A stretch of 63,140 nt of DNA, counting the filler, from Collodictyon triciliatum (Eukaryota): NCBI GenBank assembly GCA_043381765.1. It is 6 parts of 6 records of this genome, joined end to end, with 100 filler letters (N's around TTAATTAATTAA, not from the genome) between each part and the next. Parts side by side here need not be neighbours in the genome. Positions count along the whole stretch, not along the records: positions 31,363 to 39,356 come from JBHJMP010000603.1; 5 more parts are not named here. One strand, given 5' to 3'. A model generated the notes under the pieces. It was not told the DNA's origin. It saw only the letters and a program-made list of their open reading frames with translations, and did not search any database. Of this stretch, positions 1 through 63,140 are shown piece by piece. A program made the translations under genes and the position numbers. Positions within the stretch are counted from its first letter, which is position 1, and each line of letters starts with the position of its first letter.

Positions 1-711
1 CTACTCCCGAAACACCGCGCCCTACTTCTCAATATCTCCAACAGAGAGCTGTGGATAGGTGCGCGCGTAGTCCATGCAGCAACGACCTCTCCAGAATGCA
101 CCATGTGCCATAGTGGAGATGACTCTATCGAACACACATTTGTGAAGTGCTCTCTTGCTCAAAAAGTGACAGATTCTAGCCACAAGATGCTCTCTGAGCT
201 TGATTATGCTCCCAATCGACTCAGCGCGTCTCACATCCTGTTTGGCCCACAATACCAAATGACCCACGACTCTAGAATACTCTGGACAGTCACAAGAGGA
301 CATATGCTGTGGTCCTTATGGAGTGTGCGTGCATTCTCTCGCTGTAATGATTCACCCGAACGAGAAATCAATGTATCCATGTTGAAAGCCTCGTGCAATA
401 CAGCTTCCTGAACAGCCTGCTGAAACACGCTCGCATTCTTCGCTACTCTGACCGCAAGCGAAGAGAGATGTGGGAATGGGTCATGCGATATCTCCCACAG
501 CATATCCAACATCTGCTACCCACGCAGCCAATCAACTAGTTTGGGATGCCCTCCTGACCAACTCGCTATCGCTGACCTCTTTCCAGTGCTACCCTCTCCA
601 CAGTAGTGTCTTCCCCTACTCGCGTTTGCTCTCTACCATGCGCTCCCATCCCGCCCCTTGTATGGCATAACCTCGCTGTACTTTGAACCGAATAAAGATA
701 AAAAAAAAAAT
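1..711 (+). mobile_element. 3' end of non-LTR retrotransposon (L1/Tx1-like LINE), zf-RVT region, decayed
   Basis: CTMCHSGDDSIEHTFVKC is a CCHC zf-RVT motif; ends in AATAAA + A-run (~691-711); highly similar to 32522-33200; frameshifted. Confidence 0.85.
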
Positions 712-10220: not shown

Positions 10221-11349
10221 GGAAAGACCTTGGAGAAGTGTATCTTTAAGGATTCCAGGTTGAATCCTTTGAGAAAATTGGGTTAGGTTTGTCTGCAGTG
10301 GTCCTAGTGTTGTTGGTTGTTGCTGCATCATGCCTCCGAGTACTAATCAACCAAGCTCAAGCCTCCATGTCCATAAATCTGAGGTCTCCTGCTGATTGAG
10401 AGGGGAACAAAAAAATGATGGTGGCTGTGCTGTTGCGAGCGTTTTGCGTTTGCGAAGGGTTTCCTGATTAGGAATTTTTGATGTATTACATATGTGGAAA
10501 ATAATATATAATATGGTAATGCTGTTGTAGACTTGCACAAAGACTATGCAATAATATATTAAGCTAATAATGTAACTGTATGAATCTGGTCATCTTCGGT
10601 TAAATTCAGATACCCAGCGTCACCATGACGACTTGGTGATTCAATTTGCATCACCACGTTAGCTGTTATTGTCCCAGTATAGAAATTCCAGGTTAATTTT
10701 ATCCATATGAAGAATTTTGGAACAGATTTAGGTAGATGGTGCTAATAGAAAATTCCAGATATGACTACATCTGGTGACACACCTTTTCGTCCAATTGCAA
10801 GTTAGGCGATAGTTCTGCACAGTACGCATTTTCAACCGTGAGTGATTATTTTCTCATAAAGTTCCAAGGGTGGAGTGCTGGATGGTGTTGTGCAGATAAG
10901 GGATGGGGTGAAGAAAAAGCGCCGGGAAATATATCCAAAAGAAAGCGGCAGGGGAAACAACGCGTGCCCCAGCGAAGCACTTTTTTAAGCGCGGACGTCA
11001 TTGCGTTTTGCAAGTCAATTAGCAGGAGGCACCGAAAGGCTGTGATTCAGTGTTGGTTGCCAGCAAGTGGAGCCGGGTGGCAGAAGGAAGTGCAGCCGAG
11101 GCCAATCGATCACACTAGATCGAAGAGCGGTGGCAGCAGCAAAAGTGACACTTGTGCTCATCCCCATAAGCCGTCAACCAAATTATTGTCGGCACGCACA
11201 GCAAGCCAGCGTTGTGCGGGCATCGACTCCGCCTGCTCCTTTTACTGTTTCTCCTGCATTCGCCCCATATCCTCCTGGCTGTGCGACCTGCCACCACACG
11301 GCTGACAGACACACTCACGCCCACGCTTTTCTCTCGACAACCCGGCAGG

Positions 11350-12130
11350 ATGCAAAGGACATCACACACGCCAGCACAGGAGGAGAACAAGCCGCACCAC
11401 CCACCCGGCGTCAAGATGGCGTGTCCAAAGTGCGTGCGCGGCCACCGCGTGGGTTCCTGCACCCACTGGGCAGACCAGTCCATCCCGCTGCGCAGACGCG
11501 GCCGCCCACGCGCAGACGACGTCTCGCTGGCCACCATCAAAAAGTCGCCTTTGTTTCTCGCTGACATGCCACATCGTGATACTCTGTTTTGATGACCATC
11601 GCTCACGCAGAGTGTGTTTCTTGCAGGAATCTGTGTGTCCACTGCTGCGACAAGCCCGACCAGATCCAGTGTACGTGCGACCAAAGCCCCCTGCAAAAGA
11701 CGCAGCCTCACCCACGCCCAGGTCCACGCCTGCGTTTGCGTCTGCCACATATCCCCGCCCGTGCAGTGCACTCCGCGTCCGCTGCCCGTGACAGCCAGCG
11801 AGGTTGTTCCCTTCTCTATTGAGCACACATACGCACACAACCGCGAACAGAGCAAAGAGCAGAGAGCAACACACAAACCCGCATTAACCCACGCTCTTTC
11901 CAGGGGAGGACGAGACGCCGTCGCCTGATGCTAAGGATATCGAGGCCAAAGCACCCGAGCCATCTGCACCCCTGCGCATGTGCCCCTGTGACTGTGCCTA
12001 CACGCTGTGCCCCTGCTGGACATGCATCGCCTCGCAGTGCCCGTGCCTCGACTCGTGGGACCTTTCTGCCCTGCTCTCGCCCGCTGCGACCACCGCCCCG
12101 TCCTCCCCGTCTTCTGCAACCACTATCTGA
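11350..12130 (+). CDS. Copper-fist DNA-binding transcription factor (Mac1/Cuf1/Ace1 family)
   Basis: Exon 11350-11543 GVKMACPKCVRGHRVGSCTH...LRRRGRP; exon from 11627 NLCVHCCDKPDQIQCTC; last exon 11904-12130 CPCDCAYTLCPCWTCIASQCPC; splice phases consistent. Confidence 0.85.
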
Positions 12131-12617: not shown

Positions 12618-12725
12618 CTGTGTGATATGCTTTTCTGCTCTGGCTCTTTCTAAAGCTGCCCTGTCGGTGACTTTTGTGGGTCAGAGAGAGGAAGGTGGGA
12701 TGGATAGGTGGACAAAAGGGGATGA

Positions 12726-12901
12726 AAGAAAAAAAGAAAAAGAAAAAGAAAAAGAAAAAGAAAAAGAATAAAAGAAAAGAAAAAAAGAAAAAAAGAAAAA
12801 AAGAAAAAAAGAAAAAAAGAAAAAAAAGAAAAAAAAGAAAAAAAGAAAAAAAGAAAAAAAAGAAAAAAAGAAAAAAAGAAAAAAAGAAAAAAAGAAAAAA
12901 A
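12726..12901. repeat. A-rich (GAAAAAAA)n simple repeat
   Basis: Seen directly. Confidence 0.95.
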
Positions 12902-13546
12902 GGGGCTTATGTCCGTTGTGGAGTGATTTGTGACGGAATAGTGGTTGTACCAGAGGCCCTTGCTGGGCAGCTCAATAAGGACAATACTCTTTTTCTTTCC
13001 TTTCTTTTCTTTTATTTGCGCTCTAAAGAAACTCGCAGTGGTTGTTGGCTGACGATAAGTGTTCAAACTATTACAAATGACAACAAAAAAATACTGAAAA
13101 AAAAGGATCTGGATATCATTTCAACCTTGCTGCCGGTTATTTCCGCCTTTAAAATCAGGCTAATTAAGTGGGTCCAAGGGCAGAGCAGAACTCTCGTGTT
13201 TTACAAGCAGGTCACAACCAACATCGCTGGCGATGCGCCTCAATGTGATTGTCTTTATTACCGCCCATGTTTTTTTTTTTGAAAGAAAAACAACAATGAC
13301 TCCGCAGGATTTTAGAGCAAAGTTCTTTCTCGCATAGAAGAGCCACAAATCAAAGATTCGTACGCCAAGAAAATCTAGAGGGTGCCCCAATATCATTTTA
13401 TTTTGGCTGGCTGAGTGTTTTACTTGGGGTGATATATACTTGTCCAGACTGAATGCATGCAGATTAACAGAGAATGAGGATTGAGAAGAAAAAAAAGACA
13501 GTGATGTAAAGCTGTGCTCATCTTTGTTTCGTCTGAATAAAGTGAA

Positions 13547-22529: not shown

Positions 22530-23289
22530 CGAAGACCACCGGCTAAAAGAAAAGGTAGGATGTTGCGAATTGACGGGGCGATGATAGGTTCGGTAGAATA
22601 ATACAGCATAGCCGCTTTAAAGCCCGGGCGTATTGTGTTTACAGAAGTGATGCTTTTTTTTTATTAATGTATTATGAATAAAAAAAAAAGCATCAAGAGG
22701 CGAGTGAAAAAAAACACAAAGAATGGCGCGGCACTCTAATGTTTAGACGCGTTCGGATGGCTGACAAAAGCGCCTTTTTCATTCACAGTCACTCTTGCTC
22801 TTCACGCCGACTTGTATGCCAGGCAACTCAGGAAGCGCACATAAATAAACGCTTGTCTGGATGGTCTGTGTCTCCGTGGCTTTTCTCCGTATCCTGCGAT
22901 TCTCGCCCGTTCTTCCCTTGTGATGAAAACGATCAAAAATCAAGAATCAAAAGGAACAAAAAATAGGACGAACATTTTTGGAATATATAATTAATTGGAA
23001 AATGTCTGTGTGCGGTGGCATTTTCTATGTTTTCATTCTTTGATTCGCAAATGAAAGCTCCAATTTCAGTCGCGGCGGGCACCGTGATACAACAAATCAA
23101 AAAACAAATAAAAAAAACACAACAAAAAAACACAAATAAAAAAAAACACAAATAAAAAAACACAAATAAAAAAAAACACAAATAAAAAANNNNNNNNNNN
23201 NNNNNNNNNNNNNNNNNNNNNNNNNNNNNNNNNTTAATTAATTAANNNNNNNNNNNNNNNNNNNNNNNNNNNNNNNNNNNNNNNNNNNN

Positions 23290-23594: not shown

Positions 23595-30707
<7,113 letters not shown>

Positions 30708-31362
30708 TGCTACCATTGACAAAGTCTGCCAAACAACCAAGGGCTTGTGGGCGTTTGACTCCTCCAACGCATGGGCCATCAAGGACAACATGGAAACGAA
30801 ATCGTGAAATGGAATAAAATTCAAGCTCTCATCACAAAAAAAAAAAATACTATGCGTGTTTGGCGATGTTGATGCAATGTATTTCCCAGATATGGCATCG
30901 ATTGATATTTAACCTAATCAGATTATCATATGTGGAATTCTCTGGTTTTGGGGTGGATGTTTGGTATGACCTCAGACTGTGTTGGAATGCAGGCCAGACA
31001 CAAATCACCACAAATCACAATTGTGGCAACGCAAATGGCACGGCGACTGGCGGCTCTCGTGTTTGCTCAAGTGGCCACATGCGGGTCTCAGAGGAGTTCC
31101 CTGCAGCCCAACGATATTGACTCTCATATTTCTCTTTTTTTCTCATATTCCTCTTTTTCTTTTTTTTTCTCTTTTTTTCTCTTTTTTTCTCTTTTTTTCT
31201 CTTTTTTTCTCTTTTTTTCTCTTTTTTTCTCTTTTTTTCTCTTTTTATTTTCTCTTTTTTTCNNNNNNNNNNNNNNNNNNNNNNNNNNNNNNNNNNNNNN
31301 NNNNNNTTAATTAATTAANNNNNNNNNNNNNNNNNNNNNNNNNNNNNNNNNNNNNNNNNNNN

Positions 31363-33215
31363 TCATCTTGCGGTCTCCCGAAGGCGCCACACTCGCCAAC
31401 AAATGCATGCAAGAATACACACGAGCTGTCGGCGGGAAAATCAACTACGACAAGACAGATGAAATTCTTTTTGGGTTTCAGGATGGACTTATGTTTCTAG
31501 GAAACATTTTGTGGAAGCCACCGTCACATCCACTCAATTATCTTGGCATCATCTTCGATTCACAATCGGATAGCAAATGGACAAGCCTGGTTGAGGACAT
31601 CAAGTCGAAAATATCAGTGTGGAGCAACTTTCATCTTTCGGACGTTGGGAAAGTAAGGTTGTCGAACCAAGTGATGCTGTCGACCCTTATCTACAACATG
31701 AAAGGCACTTTGCTGAATCTCAAGAGGCTGAAGGGGCTGGAAGATATCTGCCGCAACTTCATCACTACGAATAATCAAAAATATAAAATCAAGACGCTCT
31801 TTAAGCCACCTACAGAGGGAGGACTGGGACTCATAACGCCTGTCATTGCATGGACATCACTCACGATGAGATGGTGGACAGATATGCTTACTCATCCGAA
31901 AGAGTTTTGGCAGCGTGGAATGTGGCATCTTATCCACCGCTTATGCCTGAACTTCAAGGCACAGCTCTGTGAGAGCAGAATCCCATCACCTTTGCCAAAC
32001 ACGCCCGAGCCGCTACTAGCGCGGTGGAAGATTCCGAATACAAACTATGAAATGTGCGAGTATATCCAACTACATGCTGGTACAGGCCAACTTTGCTGGG
32101 ATAGAGCAAAAGGCTTCTGTATCATCAAGTCGAGAGAAGGAAACAGCTCATTCATCCTGCAACAAGTCACTTTTCAAAAGGATGGAAGCTTCACACTGCC
32201 GAAAAATGCAACGATATTTCACTCCTCGAATGCAGCCCCAACCACAGCCGTCCTGAACAACAAAGGAGAATGGCGCTCACGACGTCCCATCTCATACGGA
32301 GCGTCGTCGCCATTTTTCTTTCCCCTGAAGAACCAAAGGCGGTCCATTACGCCTGATTCTCCGCAATTCTCGATGGCCACGACGTATTCTCCAAGCTGTT
32401 TCGATATAAAATCATCAGCCCGAATCCCTACAAACCGGAGAAAATGAGTCGCTGGGCCGAAACTATAGGCATTATAGCCCCGCCGATAGTCAAAAGCTGG
32501 AAGCAAGCCCGTATGCCTCAGCTACTCCCGAAACACCGCGCCTTTTGCCCAATATCTCCAACAGAGAGCTGTGGATAGGTGCGCGTGTAGTCCATGCAGC
32601 AACGACCTCTCCAGAGTGCACCATGTGCCATAGTGAAGGTGACTCTATCGAACACGCATTTGTGAAGTGCTCCCTTGCTCAAAAAGTGACAGAATCTTCC
32701 CACAAGATGCTCTCTGAGCTTGATTATGCTCCCAACCGACTCAGTGCATCTGACTTCCTGTTTGGCGCACAATACCAAATGACCCACGACTCTAGAATAC
32801 TCTGGACAGTCACAAGGGGACATATGCTGTGTCCTTATGGAGTGTGCGTGCATTCTCTCGCTCCAATGATTCACCCAACGAGAAATCAATGTATCCAGGC
32901 TTGAGAGCCTCGTGCAATACAGCTTCCTGAACAATCTGCTGAAACACACTCGCATTCTTCGCTACTCTGACCGCAAGCGAAGAGAGATGTGGGAATGTGT
33001 CGTAAGATATCTCCCACAGCATATCCAACCCCTGCTACCCACGCAGCCAATCAACCAGTTGGGTCGCCCACATGACCAGCTCGCTATCACTGACTTCTTT
33101 CCAGTGATAACCTCTCTTCACAGTGGTGTCTTCCCTTACTCGCGTTTGCTCTCTGCAATGCACTCCTATCCCGCCCCTTTGTATGGTACCTCGTTAACTT
33201 AAAATTGAATAAAGA
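31363..33215 (+). mobile_element. Decayed L1/Tx1-like LINE: RT C-terminal/thumb, zf-RVT and C-terminal tail; 5' part lost in gap
   Basis: KINYDKT, LNYLGIIF, LSDVGKVRLSNQVMLS, LFKPPTEGGLGL, CTMCHSEGDSIEHAFVKC; several frameshifts; AATAAA at ~33209. Confidence 0.9.
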
Positions 33216-48017: not shown

Positions 48018-48498
48018 GTTTTTTCGATTCCATTCTGGACTGGTTCCGCAGGTTCTTGCTCTCTACTTGACATGATTTCTTTTATAAATTTCCCGATTGT
48101 GTAAACAAGGCCCTTTTCTTCTTTGTGTGTGTGTAGGGTATAGCCCAATACACTATTTTCTCTCAGTATTTTTGTACTTAGGGAGTACATTATTTTTTTA
48201 TAAAATTTGTTTTTTTTACAAACAAACAAACAAAACACAAACAAAAAATATTTTCCTGAGCGTTCTCTCAAAGCGCAATAAAAAAAACTTATAACCGAAC
48301 TATTCCTACATACAAACTCATTTGATCTGCACAACCAAAGCCTCTTCTGGAAGCAGGAGATGGAACTCACCTTGGTTGGCCTTCAAAACTCGGGAAAGAC
48401 TACCCTCGTCAATGTCATTGCTGTATGTTACCATCATGCACTGAAATAACCCAGAGTCCCATTTTGTTCATGTACTCTAAAAATGGAGAACAAAATAC

Positions 48499-48557
<59 letters not shown>

Positions 48558-49824
48558 GAAGGATGTCACATATTCAACCTTTTCTTGAAGAATTTCAATA
48601 ATTACTACCATATCAATACTTAAGCGCATGTAAACAAGGAAATCGTTTTCTTCTGAATATTTTGCCCGTAATGTACTGTAGTAAACAGGGTCGCCACAAT
48701 CTATTTTCAATCTTGGGACCCATCTAATCAACAAAATTCTATTATTTGCGTTTGTAGTCAGGCCAGTTCCATGAAGATATGATTCCAACCGTGGGCTTTA
48801 ACATGCGCAAAGTGACCAAGGGAAATGTGACCATCAAGCTCTGGGACATTGGAGGCCAGCCCCGTTTCAGAAGCATGTGGGAACGATACTGTCGTGGCGT
48901 GAATTCAATCGTGTATGCTCATATATACTCAATAGTGATTTAAATAGCAAGATAATATACACCTAAGAAAACCATAGACTATAATCCGAACGAAGCGGTC
49001 ACAAATGGTGCTGTTTGATAAACCCCATGAATCCTCCTTCACTTTCAAACAAATGCTTCAGATATTGTCCTGATTCTTATCTAACATGCCAAATGATAAG
49101 TCACATTTGTCACATCATATCACCGTATCTTCAAAAGCTATGTTGTTGACTCTGCTGACCGTGAAAAAGTGGAGCAGTCCAAGAAGGAGCTCCATGATTT
49201 GCTCGAGAAACCGGCTGTAGCAGGAATTCCTTTGCTCAGTATGCCTTTGCCATGAAATTCTTTGAATTTACTGAATGAATCAATTGGTTTTTTTTCTTTT
49301 AAATAATGCATGGCAGTATCCATGTAGAACGAACAGCAAAACTCATGTGCACTCCTTAATCCATTCCTTTTTGTCGATGCTGATGAATAGTACTCGGAAA
49401 CAAGAACGACCTTCCTGGAGCTTTCACAGTCGACGAATTGATCGAGCAACTGTAATACCTTCGCATTCCATTTCCAATCGTATATATCTTTATCATTATA
49501 TTTCTCATAATACTCAGCATAGATGATATGAATGAACTAAAGGACTTTCATATCAGTTCCCGATGTAAAACAAAAACAAAAACAAAAACAAATTGACAAA
49601 TGAAGCATATGCTTGTAAAGCCTTTCTTTTGTATTATTTCACTCTCCCAAAGCCTGTGATATCTAAGATGGTTTGTTAATATACAAATCACACACATATG
49701 ATGCAGTGACTTAAAGTCCCTGAAAGGGAGAGAAGTGTGCTGCTACAGTATTTCTGCCAAGAACCAAGTAAATATTGACATCACCATGGACTGGCTCATC
49801 AAACACTCCAAGCGCCCATCATAA
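48018..49824 (+). CDS. ARL8: ADP-ribosylation factor-like GTPase 8; start codon in gap
   Basis: Exons 48018-48051, 48341-48422, 48758-48912, 49138-49238, 49391-49451, 49707-49824: [52 protein letters not shown]. Confidence 0.97.
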
Positions 49825-51264
49825 GTAATGACCATATACTATTCTGAAGGAAAACATACCGGTTTCTTGTTCGTTCTTGTCCCTATTTCTTCAAACTGTA
49901 CGCACTCTAAACGATGCATACTATTTTCCTCCAAAAAAACCTAGATGCAGCAGTTGCCCAGCAAAGCCCATGTTTGTATGGCTCTCGATGCCAGATTAAA
50001 TCATAAAAGTATGGGACATTTCTGCACCATTTCTCATGCTACAAAACCTCTCCTTTGCGTTGCTTACAACAGGAACCCAGGATTCTTTCTCTCGGCACCT
50101 TCTCAAAGGGTCTTGCGGGGGATTCCATCTTGGGTGTGAACCAGACTCTACAGATTAAACCCCATCAAAACAAAACAAACCCCACCTACCTACTATGCAT
50201 TAAAAAAAAAATGAAAAAAGAAGCGCCTACACCACTCCACTCCTTCTCCTTTCTCTTCTTTCAGATAAACAACTGCATGGGGAGCAGCTGACCAGGATAA
50301 ATAAAAGGCCGATTGGAAATTCTTTACAACATGGCGCGTTCAATGTCACTCGCGCTACCTCTTCTGCATGACAAAGGAGCGCAGCGTAGTTTTTCTCTAC
50401 TTTTCCCTTACACTTTATATTGAAAATTTGCAAAATAACCAAGATTGTAGTTCTCTTTGCACTTGGAGCGAATCGAGGTTGCAGATAAACAAGATATGAA
50501 CTGAAGAGACTTTGAATCGAATAAAGGAAAAAAAAAGATATGAACTGAAGATGCGAATCAGCGCGCAACCCATCAGCAACGCTACTTTGGGATGTTGGTT
50601 GGCCCACGAAGCAAAGCAGTAGAGGGGCAGGGCGGAGTGTATACCGTAGCGTAGAAGAGGAGGAGTGTGGCCAGTGCATATCGCCGGCTATGAATTGTGT
50701 CGCCTGGCAGCGCGAAGAGATTCGTTCTCTGCTCGAAGCCTTGCGTACCTTTCCTCTAACGCAACCCGCTCCTGCCTCCTGGAGTCCTCTCTGTGAGTCT
50801 AGTTTATCGGAGGGTCCTTTGGTCAATGCTTGTCATCGAGGTGGGCGATAGAGTCTGAAATATTCATTTTGAATGTTGAAGATGAAGTACAAGTTCGGCT
50901 TCATTTTGGGCGAAGAGATTGATAAATATCGACGCGGTTCCTTGGACGTGGGATGAGATGGTGGAGACTCCAGAACTAATAACGTTTCATTTTTTAAAAA
51001 TAAATATATCCCGTCTCCCAATGTGGCTTTGTTTGTGGATTAAAGATACAAGAATTCAATGGGCTCATCACCTAATATTGTCTGACATTTGTCGAATTTT
51101 TGGTGGTATCCCGGCGGGCAACACACAACTGCATAATTAGGTTAAAAAAATCGATTATCCACTGAGCTGCTAGATTGTAGGAAGAATCATCAGAGAAAAA
51201 ATGTGATGGGAGGAACGAACTGCGAAGATGATTGGGGGCGGTAAATCCTAGTTAGGTGAACTGT

Positions 51265-53189: not shown

Positions 53190-53363
53190 NNNNNNNNNNN
53201 NNNNNNNNNNNNNNNNNNNNNNNNNNNNNNNNNTTAATTAATTAANNNNNNNNNNNNNNNNNNNNNNNNNNNNNNNNNNNNNNNNNNNNAGTGAAAGAAC
53301 AGTCTCCTTAGAGCTGCTCTTTATTTGTGAGAAGGGATTTAATTGGTTTGGTATTTTCTGTAG

Positions 53364-54132: not shown

Positions 54133-56603
54133 TTATCGTATCAAAGCTAAGATGTGGTGGGTGAGGCGCTGCTGGGATGGGGGGGGGGGAGGCGTGATCC
54201 AGTGAGGAATCGAAGTGAATAATAGAGCAAAAGATAACAAAACAAGAGAGAACAAAAATAGAGAGAAAGAAAAAAAAAGAGAGAAAAAAAAAAAAGAGAG
54301 AAAAAAAAAGAGAGAAAAAAAAGAGAGAAAAAAAAGAGAAAAAAAAAAAAAAAAAGAGAGAAAAAAAAAGAGAAAAAAAAAGAGAGAGAAAAAAAAAGAG
54401 AGAGAGAAAAAAGAGAGAGAGAGAGAAAAAAAAAGAGGGAGAAAAAAGAGAAAAAAAAAAGAGAAAATCGTAGACGCACTAACCACCTTATCAAACCACA
54501 CAAGATCTCGCTTGCCACCGATGGAGAGGAGACCAAAGACTACACACAGCCCCGAGCGCGACAAGGGCACCGTCCTCAGTGAGCTCTCATTCTCCAGGTA
54601 TGTCCAGCTGTCAGAGGAGGCCTTCCTCGGTCGGACGAGGGTGCGGAGCAAAGTTGAAGCAAAGGCAGGTTCCGTAGACGAAGAAGTCTCTTCAAGGAAA
54701 ACCATCCGTCCGGGCCGAGCGAAAGCAAAGGGTGNNNNNNNNNNNNNNNNNNNNNNNNNNNNNNNNNNNNNNNNNNNNNNNNNNNNNNNNNNNNNNNNNN
54801 NNNNNNNNNNNNNNNNNNNNNNNNNNNNNNNNNNNNNNNNNNNNNNNNNNNNNNNNNNNNNNNNNNNNNNNNNNNNNNNNNNNNNNNTTTTTTTTCCTCC
54901 TCAGACCTCTAATTTTGAAGTGTAACAAAAGCTGTGCGAAAGGGAAAAGAGAATTGAAGGATAACATATGTCCTCTAAACTCACGGCTCTGTGAGGGTTT
55001 TACGAAAGGGTTGGCTCAGATAAGTTTAACCGAATACCAATCACTTGAAAGTATGATCCTAATTAAAAGCACAACACAAGAAAGTACCAAAGGAAAGTAG
55101 CGTTAAAGAACGAATGACAGACGCAGCCAAGCAGATCAAAGTGGAGCTGACTGAGCGCAGTGCCATGGTTTAACTGGACTCCATAATACTTAACCTCACA
55201 CATACCAACATACATCCAAAGTTGATCTTTTGTGATAATACCAGATCTGTATCTTAGTAGACTTTTCTTACTTTTCAATAAGCTTCCTTTCAGCTCTTTT
55301 TTTTTTTGGAAATAAATAACCAACTCAATAACTTCTCATACCATCGCAGATCGTCAACGAAATCACAGCAATAGTCCAGAAATCCTCTCGAGGCACCGAG
55401 GCTCAGGAGGTTTTATTTAGACGATAATTTTTCTTTTATTATCAATCTATTTATCATTTTTCTTGTTGAGTCGTGTTTGAGAGGATGTCTTTTTTTCTTG
55501 GTTTGCGATTCATTTTGGTATTCTTTGACGAAAATACTTAAGATGCATACTTCAAAGGAATTGTTAAGGACTGCTAAGGCGTTCGCTCCCCTTGAAGATG
55601 TTGTCAAGGCAACCGAAGATGTATAATTCAATTTACTTGCTTTAAAAATATTGTGATGTTGTGAGAGACTCACTCGTGACCTTTTTAATACATCTTTATT
55701 TGCTTATATCAGCATCTAGCGAATATTTTCCATGCCTAATGTCATAATGAACTATCTTTCCAGTATGTTCTACGACAAACTTTTCAATCACTCCAGGAAT
55801 TGAAGCAACAGTAGTATTTTCATTCCCGAATTTATTTTATCTTGTGATATAATTTTAAAATGTGAGTCAAATGAGATAATCTAATTTAAAAAAAAAAACG
55901 TTTCTTTCTCTTTATCGCAAAGTAAACCAACCACCTCTATTTTTTTCCTTTATTCGATTCAAAGAACCAACCACCTCTATTTAATAACCTTTTCAATTTT
56001 AGGATTCAATACGCCACCGTCAGGTTCAGCTTGAAATATATATCCCTTATCCTTTTTCCCCTTTTTTTCCCCCATCGATCGATTCAACGCAGTCTAAATC
56101 TATTCAAATTTTATCATCACAAAAGAAAAAAACTATTAGTAGTGATACAGGTATCACATTACTAAAATCGACACAAACCATCTGCAGTGCTGTTACAATT
56201 CCTGGGGCAAATTCCCAAATGAAGGAGACAATCCGATTGTTTTATGCCAATCCTAATACTTTTGAAGATTCGTCCCAGGCCACACAATCACCGCCACAGT
56301 AAGCAATGGCCGTCACGAACGCATGGAAAATAAACGCGACTTCACCTAATCATCCCATCATCACATTATAGCACAATCACACGACCCAACAGCACATAGC
56401 TCTGTAATTACAAATCTGGAATACATTTATTTATATATATTTAACTCCATTTTATTCCTTATTATATAATATAGTATATAAATGTCAATCAAAATATATG
56501 AATAGCATGCGTGCTTCTTTCTGGACTGTTCGTCACCCACTACATGTCATAACGGTCATATGGCCGGTTTCTTGGTTCATATCCAGGAAAACACAATTCT
56601 TTT
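54133..56603 (-). CDS. Multi-exon hypothetical protein, weakly APC4-like
   Basis: GT-AG-bounded open exons (CVAWDESSKVLG; DLRWYEKLL; VPLSRSGLCVVF...LVWFDK|QRLTHHILALIR*); APC4 resemblance is loose; 5' end may lie near 57250. Confidence 0.35.
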
Positions 56604-57380
56604 CTATGTATGGAATTTTGTCGTGTATTCATTCAAATATGTCCTAATAAGTGTAAATTATATGAATTAATATGTCTCTTTTATTCTATCCCTCATCTCC
56701 AGCCGGTCACCCAACCACACGCGATTGATCTCGATCACGAATCGAAGCTGAGCTTTCCTGCAGCAAGTGCAAAAGGAGGAAAAAAAAAGAAAATAAAAAA
56801 GAAAATAAAAAAGAAAATAAAAAAGAAAATAAAAAAGAAAATAAAAAAAATAAAATAAAAGAAAGCAAAAAGAAAAGGAAAAATAAAAAGAACAAAATAG
56901 AAAATAAAAAGAAAACATAAATAAAGGAAAAAACAAAATAGAAAATAAAAAAGAAAAAGGAAAAGAGGATAAAAAAGAAAAAAGAAGCTGAGCCAAATAG
57001 AATACTTTGAAGTAGCTGAAGCAGACACAAATCGCAAACAATGCCAGCACGATCAAAACACACAGTCAAGAACCCTGCAAGCCAGAAGCTCAACAATAAT
57101 TTTTTTGAAGAGACGCAATATATTGTTTGAATGAGAGTATATTAAATATTATGCTGAACAAAGGAAAGACAAAGTCTCTGTAATGCCCGCTGATTGTCGT
57201 GTACAAAAGAGTTCGCTGCAGACCAGCATATACACCCACACAAACCCTGTTGACACGAACCCTTCCTTTATCGATCCAAGACACCTAGCATCTCAATTGC
57301 ACACAACTACCCAGAAGGCACATTTTTTTTCCCTCCTTGTGTTCTAGGAGTTTACCCAGAAAGAATCTTTCAGTCCTCCA

Positions 57381-60249: not shown

Positions 60250-60678
60250 GTATGGTGCATGCATCTATGTTTCGTATTATGAAGAACTATTTTGGCGGTA
60301 TTCTATTTATTGCTTTTATATACGCAGTTTTTTTTATTTTCTTCGAGTGTGATTTGCACATTTCACGAAAACGCACTTGTTGCTTGGGCGCATTCTTTAT
60401 GCAAATCTAGAGATGAGAACCACNNNNNNNNNNNNNNNNNNNNNNNNNNNNNNNNNNNNNNNNNNNNTTAATTAATTAANNNNNNNNNNNNNNNNNNNNN
60501 NNNNNNNNNNNNNNNNNNNNNNNCACCGAAGTGAGCAGTCAACAAAAGAAAAAAAAAAGGGGGGGGGGGGAGTTAAAAAAAAAAGGTTAAGAAATCAAGA
60601 AACAATAAATACAGATTCTAGATAGAGAGAAAATACAAAAATGTATATATGGGACCTAAAATGTAAGAAAATCCATAC

Positions 60679-62859: not shown

Positions 62860-63140
62860 TATTTATAGTTTGATTATATTAGATTTTATTGTATTTATCT
62901 ATATTATTCTTTTCTCTTTGAACAAGATGTTGGGAATGGTTAGGCTTTGGTTCGCTAGCCATCGTTTGCATGGACGCTACTTGGTGGCCGGGTGGCGGAG
63001 AAGTAGTCGGTAATCAGGAATTGCATCCTGCGATCTGGCCTGTAGCCTGGGTCTTGTGCTTGCATGAGACATACAAGGCGAGGTTTAATATCTTTCTCAG
63101 CCTCTTTCCACATGTCTCTTCTCATGGGGTCGGGGTCGGA
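62860..63140 (-). mobile_element. 3' end of a second, diverged LINE family (truncated by window end)
   Basis: Open frame 63140-62955 SDPDPMRRDMWKEAE...QFLITDYF aligns to SDRKRREMWECVV...QLAITDFF of the 31-33 kb LINE; followed by A-rich tail with AATAAA. Confidence 0.6.

Follow-up and report, generated by a model that had tools for sequence, protein, structure and literature searches.

LINE remnants in the window

The window, that is, the whole stretch of DNA that was analysed (63,140 nucleotides), consists of AT-rich eukaryotic DNA from Collodictyon triciliatum, in which linkers (44 N, 12 bases, again 44 N) connect the contigs. A Pfam scan of 144 stop-to-stop frames of at least 90 aa, covering the entire window, revealed retroelement domains at two places only, and both of them were zf-RVT. 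The domain at 1-408 was recovered with an E-value of 7.6e-7 (30.1 bits, cut-off 27.5), while the one at 32410-32904 (PF13966, E 1.6e-5) scored 25.9 bits and thus slightly below the 27.5 cut-off. The surrounding DNA is 89.9% identical between the two places over 721 aligned columns, and both copies belong to one LINE family, here called family A. A third piece at the far end of the window represents a diverged family, here called family B. The features are listed below with their strand in brackets.

1..~715 (+): LINE family A copy 1, truncated by the window start, retaining zf-RVT, the tail and a poly(A)-bearing 3' end
559..582 (+): QLAIADLF, the copy 1 form of the motif, decayed by T>A and F>L; PVLPSPQ and a stop codon come next
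31363..33234 (+): LINE family A copy 2, a 5'-cut ORF2 remnant with the RT end, thumb, linker, zf-RVT and tail
32410..32830 (+): copy 2 ORF2 segment with the zf-RVT (CCHC; Pfam PF13966), in the frame whose codons start at 1 mod 3
32830..32877 (+): losses of a single base after 32830 and again after 32876, both private to copy 2, which together move the frame from zf-RVT to tail by -2
32879..33076 (+): ORF2 tail of copy 2 on the 5' side of the motif, with helices (…LESLVQYSFLN…, RREMWECVVRYL) that give way to a linker rich in proline
33077..33100 (+): QLAITDFF, the TD-type PIP-box-like motif of copy 2 (CAG CTC GCT ATC ACT GAC TTC TTT)
33101..33126 (+): final seven ORF2 codons of family A (PVL-x-SP-Q/R) and the family stop site, disturbed in copy 2
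33208..33234 (+): AATAAA and the A-rich stretch that closes copy 2
62958..63140 (-): final 61 codons of the family B ORF2, whose body continues beyond the window end; RRDMW precedes the motif by 28 residues
63000..63023 (-): QFLITDYF, the family B motif, followed by SATR…; 14 codons separate the motif from the stop at 62955-62957

Copy 2 begins directly at a contig-joining N linker and terminates with a short 3' UTR and an A-rich end. In family A this UTR spans about 100 bases and closes with AATAAA and an A run. Copy 1 is decayed: aligned with copy 2, it lacks one base near 381, has gained one near 540 and contains a TAG in frame. Altogether, four copies document family A (copy 1, copy 2, the protein P0151 and the metagenome contig L001), while family B is represented by its single 61-codon fragment.

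A 360-aa piece of copy 2 (31365-32447) matched 261 proteins at E<=0.001 among 1.84 billion representatives. The closest matches were short fragments, and the full-length ones were at most 32% identical. Four full-length relatives were scanned for domains (P0008, P0010, P0011 and P0015), and Exo_endo_phos and RVT_1 were found in all of them and zf-RVT in three. The architecture of these relatives is that of the L1 type. The 360-aa piece itself gave no Pfam match to RVT_1, because it starts behind the RT core. A search of the ESM Atlas returned solely unnamed or zinc-binding RT fragments of eukaryotic origin and was uninformative on the motif. The elements are L1-like in that the RT and thumb are related to L1-type ORF2, a zf-RVT lies behind the RT and the insertions are of the TPRT type; this assignment refers to the 3' portions of the family A copies present in the window, the APE endonuclease and ORF1 regions lying outside it or its contigs. 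Two tiny 3'-end insertions of family A, near 50509-50536 and 55964-55940, carry poly(A), and each is bordered by a target-site duplication of about 15 bases. Family A has been mobilised by TPRT. For the family B piece, the in-register similarity to family A (p ~0.003, shuffling) and an A-rich 3' flank suggest that it is a LINE ORF2 tail as well.

Reading frame and end of the family A protein

The original prediction had placed a p21-type PIP box, QLAITDFF, downstream of zf-RVT at the C-terminus of a LINE ORF2. Translation of 33077-33100 confirmed that this peptide fits the PIP pattern including the p21-type TD. The position behind zf-RVT also held, but in copy 2 itself the frame of the motif differs from the frame of zf-RVT. 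DNA alignment of copy 2 with copy 1 located the cause of this shift: copy 2 is one base short after 32830 and another one after 32876. Each of the four public runs (aligned to 32400-33240) has contigs with an extra G at both deletion sites. The protein P0151 (118 aa, 89% identical) reads MLWSLWSVRAF…RLESLVQYSF…RREAW…DQLAITDFF in a single frame. Likewise, 552-950 of the metagenome contig L001 can be translated without a frame change over 133 codons, which begin with LCSQRLSASD…, include QLAITDFFPVLASPR and end at TAG. In both sequences the frame is uninterrupted from the post-zinc-finger helix to QLAITDFF. Consequently, the frame breaks are private to copy 2 while the other copies read through, and the motif belongs to the ORF2 frame of family A, as seen in P0151, L001 and the contigs of the four public runs. 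QLAITDFF is thus located behind zf-RVT at the C-terminal end of the family A protein.

The end of the protein could be defined in the same way. Family A terminates with a TAG seven codons past the motif in copy 1, in L001 and in nearly all public-run contigs. Copy 2 again deviates, as it carries a private 2-base insertion past the motif (two bases at 33117/33118 are absent in the aligned contigs) and a TGG at 33124-33126 in place of the TAG (nearly all contigs read A for G at 33125). The 33 residues by which copy 2 continues to 33199 are therefore an artefact that arose through decay.

The peptide patterns that retrieved L001 lie upstream of the motif. Using the alignment of the A and B tails, the metagenome scan gave 344 pattern matches, one of which was confirmed (L001); the same alignment gave 17 pattern matches in the viral scan and 51 in the scan of prokaryote genomes, with none confirmed in either. 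A near-identity protein search with the tail retrieved one protein, P0151, and word-indexed protein searches with the tail and with the RT piece gave no match among longer proteins. Public-run contigs from RNA libraries were not accepted as proof of transcription, the RNA label of one library being a guess. Freshwater metagenome runs showed shares of 0.16-0.18, from which we did not infer a habitat.

The motif is preceded by a linker rich in proline, with six prolines among the 30 residues before it in family A copy 2. An AF2 model of L001:552-950, built from a 5-row alignment (mean pLDDT 56.7, low throughout), revealed three long helices up to residue 96, and the last 37 residues were devoid of regular structure (pLDDT ~43-52). 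As the confidence is low throughout, the model hints only weakly at a free or disordered ORF2 tail.

Conservation of the motif in two LINE families

Both QLAITDFF (in copy 2, P0151 and L001) and QFLITDYF of family B conform to the canonical PIP consensus Q-x-x-[LIMV]-x-x-[FY]-[FY], and the TD of p21-type PIP boxes is present in both. A strict version of the pattern, Q-x-x-[ILM]-x-x-[FY]-[FY], has ten matches when the whole window is translated in six frames, and hence a single match is weak evidence. Two of the ten matches are the tails of A and B, which share an identical register with the motif 28 residues after RR[ED]MW. The earlier claims that copy 1 contains a decayed QLAIADLF and that the diverged element at the window end has QFLITDYF at the equivalent place (63023-63000, minus strand) are correct as well.

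We compared the two families within and around the motif, a contrast that had been proposed together with the motif and that turned out in its favour. Five of the eight motif residues are identical and two further ones are conservative changes (L/F and F/Y), whereas only 7 of 39 flanking residues (18%) are identical. With the register fixed by the motif, the score of the flanks was reached by 667 of 200,000 shuffles. Shared register and shuffling together support homology of the A and B tails; a BLAST comparison of one tail against the other was not significant (E 0.9-1.6). Four of the five identical motif residues (Q, I, T and the final F) have differing codons in A and B, which argues for a constraint on the peptide and not on DNA or RNA. 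Conservation at the RNA or DNA level was accordingly rejected, since the two families differ at synonymous positions. As judged from this alignment and for the two families seen, the motif is conserved between diverged LINEs while its flanks vary.

Variation within family A was analysed by codon annotation of the public-run contigs; these data pool family A copies from at least four samples, and all counts cover the variants listed. Between 32930 and 33100, 11 variants are among those listed. Eight of these are polymorphic (share 0.46-0.95 in one run), and all eight are synonymous. Two synonymous variants fall inside the motif itself, 33079 G>A (CAG>CAA, Q) and 33094 C>T (GAC>GAT, D), and both are common. 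The three non-synonymous ones among the 11 are found in all other contigs and thus are mutations of copy 2 itself. In the region from thumb to zinc finger further upstream, polymorphic sites of family A are mostly non-synonymous among the variants listed. Past the motif, position +4 of family A varies between T, P and A. Between copy 2 and L001, five synonymous and four non-synonymous codon differences were counted over 74 codons. On the basis of these substitution patterns, the motif is under purifying selection.

Full-length relatives lack the tail motif. In 27 full-length relatives (>=1000 aa) the strict pattern occurs once per 33,231 residues and is absent from the last 80 residues. A relaxed pattern was likewise found in the last 80 residues of none of 48 relatives of at least 600 aa and none of the 27 full-length ones. 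When the C-termini of 12 relatives were aligned with A and B, the CCHC and the helices were common to all, while the endings were unrelated. The proline-rich linker and the motif are therefore specific to the A/B group. A C-terminal PIP-like motif in at least two related LINE families is, in summary of these analyses, real, in frame, conserved and selected.

A putative clamp-docking tail and competing readings

Canonical PIP boxes and PIP degrons, the latter defined by TD plus K or R at +4, are described in PMC3973308 and PMC6881253. According to these sources TD raises the affinity of a PIP box, and the p21 peptide is given as RQTSMTDFYHSKRRL (PMC6881253). The same account places PIP motifs mostly in disordered regions, with the very C-terminus as a possible site, and states that basic flanks raise the affinity of the p21 PIP (PMC6881253). 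Basic flanks of the p21 kind are not present around the family A motif. We propose that the proline-rich C-terminal tail of the A/B elements carries a short linear motif of the PIP type, which is under selection and probably serves as a PCNA dock, a reading in which we have moderate confidence. The ORF2 protein of these LINEs would end in a flexible proline-rich tail with a TD-type PIP, Q-x-x-I-T-D-[FY]-F. Its glutamine would occupy the Q-pocket of PCNA, and the isoleucine together with the two aromatic residues would insert into the hydrophobic pocket under the interdomain connector loop. In this way, clamps that have been loaded at primer-template junctions may hold the LINE ribonucleoprotein by its tail. 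Such a tether could direct the element to suitable target DNA, for example forks or nicks, or it could bring RNase H2, polymerase, flap nuclease and ligase to the TPRT site, by analogy with what has been proposed for human L1. We infer both PCNA binding and a role in retrotransposition for the A and B tails.

Several other readings have to be weighed against PCNA docking. PIP motifs overlap with RIR and MIP motifs (PMC6881253), so that the partner of the tail could be a protein other than PCNA, and the conservation and selection data reveal constraint without naming the partner. The peptide might hence be a selected dock for Rev1 (an FF-based RIR), Mlh1 (MIP) or an unknown host protein. We regard this as unlikely: Q1, I4 and the aromatic residues 7 and 8 are all kept in both families together with TD, whereas a RIR or MIP needs only the FF part and the downstream flank, and this flank differs (PVLASPR in A, SATRPPS in B). 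A reading of DFFPV as a LIR (Atg8-binding) was dropped, since DYFSA of family B does not fit. Conservation and synonymous-only variation would also suit a peptide that belongs to the ORF2 fold or makes an intramolecular or RNA contact, for instance if the tail packs against the C-terminal domain; the resemblance to a PIP box would then be coincidental. The synonymous-only polymorphism indeed extends beyond the motif over all of 32930-33100, among the variants listed. However, the linker in front of the motif is rich in proline and not the same in A and B, the motif lies 7-14 residues from the stop, the 27 full-length relatives of the same domain order do without it, and the low-confidence AF2 model reveals no packing of the motif. 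Such a structural role thus appears improbable to us.

A PIP degron would go beyond docking, as CRL4-Cdt2 would ubiquitylate ORF2p on chromatin-loaded PCNA and thereby limit its dose or dwell time in addition to the recruitment. Family B, with QFLITDYF-SAT-R, presents the full signature Q/N-x-x-psi-T-D-theta-theta-x-x-x-R/K (PMC3973308), and the TD kept in both families is described as rare outside CRL4-Cdt2 substrates (PMC3973308). Against this stands the non-basic +4 residue of family A (T, P or A), by which a basic +4 fails as a feature of the group; moreover, TD alone is reported to be insufficient for degradation (PMC6881253), and selection would hardly favour a self-destruct tag in a selfish element. 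We consider it very unlikely that the motif acts as a degron in this group. Just as unlikely is a functionless chance resemblance, in which A and B share the peptide by descent and have not yet lost it. Few sequences have been seen, the BLAST comparison of A and B is not significant, and the strict pattern occurs ten times in the six frames of the window. Nevertheless, the motif is retained at 5/8 residues through synonymous codon changes while the flanks have dropped to 18% identity, the eight polymorphic sites listed are all synonymous, and the base rate in relatives is one match per 33,231 residues. PCNA docking is, on the sequence evidence, the best explanation of the A/B tail motif, and we lean towards it being correct.

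A clamp-binding PIP box at the C-terminus of a LINE ORF2 protein had been thought undescribed, and our literature search retrieved none; it returned human L1 and the pogo-type transposases. Like human L1, families A and B probably belong to the L1-type elements with APE and RT, and their ORF2 proteins carry a clamp-binding site, which is putative in A and B. Human L1 ORF2p binds PCNA, and its retrotransposition needs PCNA (PMC7617806, PMC10830420). Where the clamp binds is disputed for human L1. A PIP box was proposed at 407-415, within a helix (404-419) that lies between EN and RT and packs against palm and fingers (PMC10830420), while a 2025 study questions this canonical PIP box and places PCNA on a "PUB" surface of the wrist domain (PMC7617806). 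Thus, the human sites are a packed internal helix or a folded wrist surface, whereas A and B have a linear TD-type peptide in a proline-rich tail behind zf-RVT. The predicted contrast to human L1 stands in so far as the motif is C-terminal, 7-14 residues from the stop; it covers the 3' half of the A and B elements, the 5' half, in which a human-type internal site would lie, being outside the window. If the proposal is true, a second, distant L1-like lineage with an exposed C-terminal PIP would be an independent sign of a general need for clamp recruitment, and it would offer a simple peptide-level system for testing this need in retrotransposition. A bolder version is speculative and in our view has little chance of holding in full: L1-like LINEs of a deep-branching protist may have gained a TD-type PCNA tag of high affinity at the very end of ORF2p, in an event independent of human L1, so that clamp recruitment would be a recurrent requirement of L1-type TPRT, and the family B tag would be a complete PIP degron through which CRL4-Cdt2 destroys ORF2p on chromatin-loaded PCNA, as a brake that is either built-in or host-imposed.

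Mobile-element enzymes with clamp-binding motifs are already known, and the putative C-terminal dock on a LINE ORF2 falls within this kind. The primary paper on PIP boxes in pogo-type transposases is reportedly that of Warbrick in 1998. In the review PMC5371812, the PIP boxes of the pogo, Tigger and Lemi1 transposases are seen as convergent use of the sliding clamp, and the function of the pogo motif itself is called unclear in that text. These transposases resemble the A/B proteins as mobile-element enzymes with a PIP box (a PIP-type motif in A and B), but they are cut-and-paste DNA transposases, whereas A and B encode the reverse transcriptase/endonuclease of a non-LTR retrotransposon. If PCNA docking is correct, a retrotransposon would join the mobile elements that converge on sliding clamps (PMC5371812).

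In the host proteins POLD3 and FEN1 and in archaeal clamp partners, a PIP likewise follows a folded domain and sits at the extreme C-terminus or close to it (PMC6881253); they are replication proteins for which binding has been measured, while the A and B tails are putative clamp partners. In the peptide itself, the A and B motifs resemble those of p21, Cdt1 and Set8, which have Q-x-x-psi-T-D-theta-theta near the C-terminus in a disordered tail (PMC3973308, PMC6881253). These are host cell-cycle regulators destroyed by CRL4-Cdt2, whereas the carrier in A and B is a retrotransposon enzyme. Compared with them, family A is without the +4 base and without basic flanks, and family B also shares the basic residue at +4.

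Minimal insertions of LINE family A

Two tiny insertions of LINE family A, the L1-like LINE whose ORF2 tail carries the PIP-box-like QLAITDFF, were found in the window, each with the last ~19 bases of the family and a short A run:

50470-50580, plus strand, tiny family A insertion
55900-56010, minus strand, tiny family A insertion

Only the terminal ~19 bases (…CTTTGAATCGAATAAAGG) of the element are present before the A run, and direct repeats of ~15 bases flank both insertions (GATATGAACTGAAGA; TAGAGGTGGTTGGTT). Both resemble products of target-primed reverse transcription (TPRT), the LINE insertion route, with extreme 5' truncation.

Comparison with contigs of public sequencing runs (X1-X20) revealed parts of family A, at shares of 0.06-0.18, in many metagenomes of lake or freshwater origin, drawn from 15 studies. 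One organism-labelled run also contained family A parts (165 contigs). The host of this LINE, or relatives of the host, may be widespread in fresh water.

Probable contig junctions

A pattern in which 12 bases separate two stretches of 44 N recurs at five sites:

23190-23289
31263-31362
39357-39456
53190-53289
60424-60523

The central 12 bases, read at one of the five sites (31307-31318), put a stop codon into each of the three forward frames. The pattern looks like a contig-joining linker, and hence adjoining blocks of the window are possibly apart in the genome. Further N runs in the window span 79-568 bases.

Open frames and simple repeats

Three regions outside the LINEs hold open frames or exons:

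11170-11589, plus strand, open frame that matches PF00649, the Copper-fist DNA-binding domain (E 1.7e-11)
29034-29366 and 30000-30272, plus strand, coiled-coil-like coding exons (…EELKDKATYVSFEIGNAVGYRVETERTKTQLTQVVESLREKERIIKHIQSQLH…) of an intron-containing host gene
42805-45234, both strands, GC-rich island (GC fraction 0.51-0.60) containing very long open frames

The Copper-fist frame sits within a GC-richer block at 10-12 kb. The island holds open frames of 809 aa (minus) and 647 aa (plus), which reflect either a genuine gene of high GC content or a composition that keeps frames open. No Pfam match was obtained for these frames or for the coiled-coil-like exons; the latter lie on the contig preceding LINE copy 2, the family A copy at 31363-33234 (plus strand).

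CT-rich (TTTCTT-like) simple-repeat arrays, mutually related, were also observed:

12725-12903
31100-31262
48478-48563
54217-54467
56779-56983

One of them reaches the contig end immediately before LINE copy 2.
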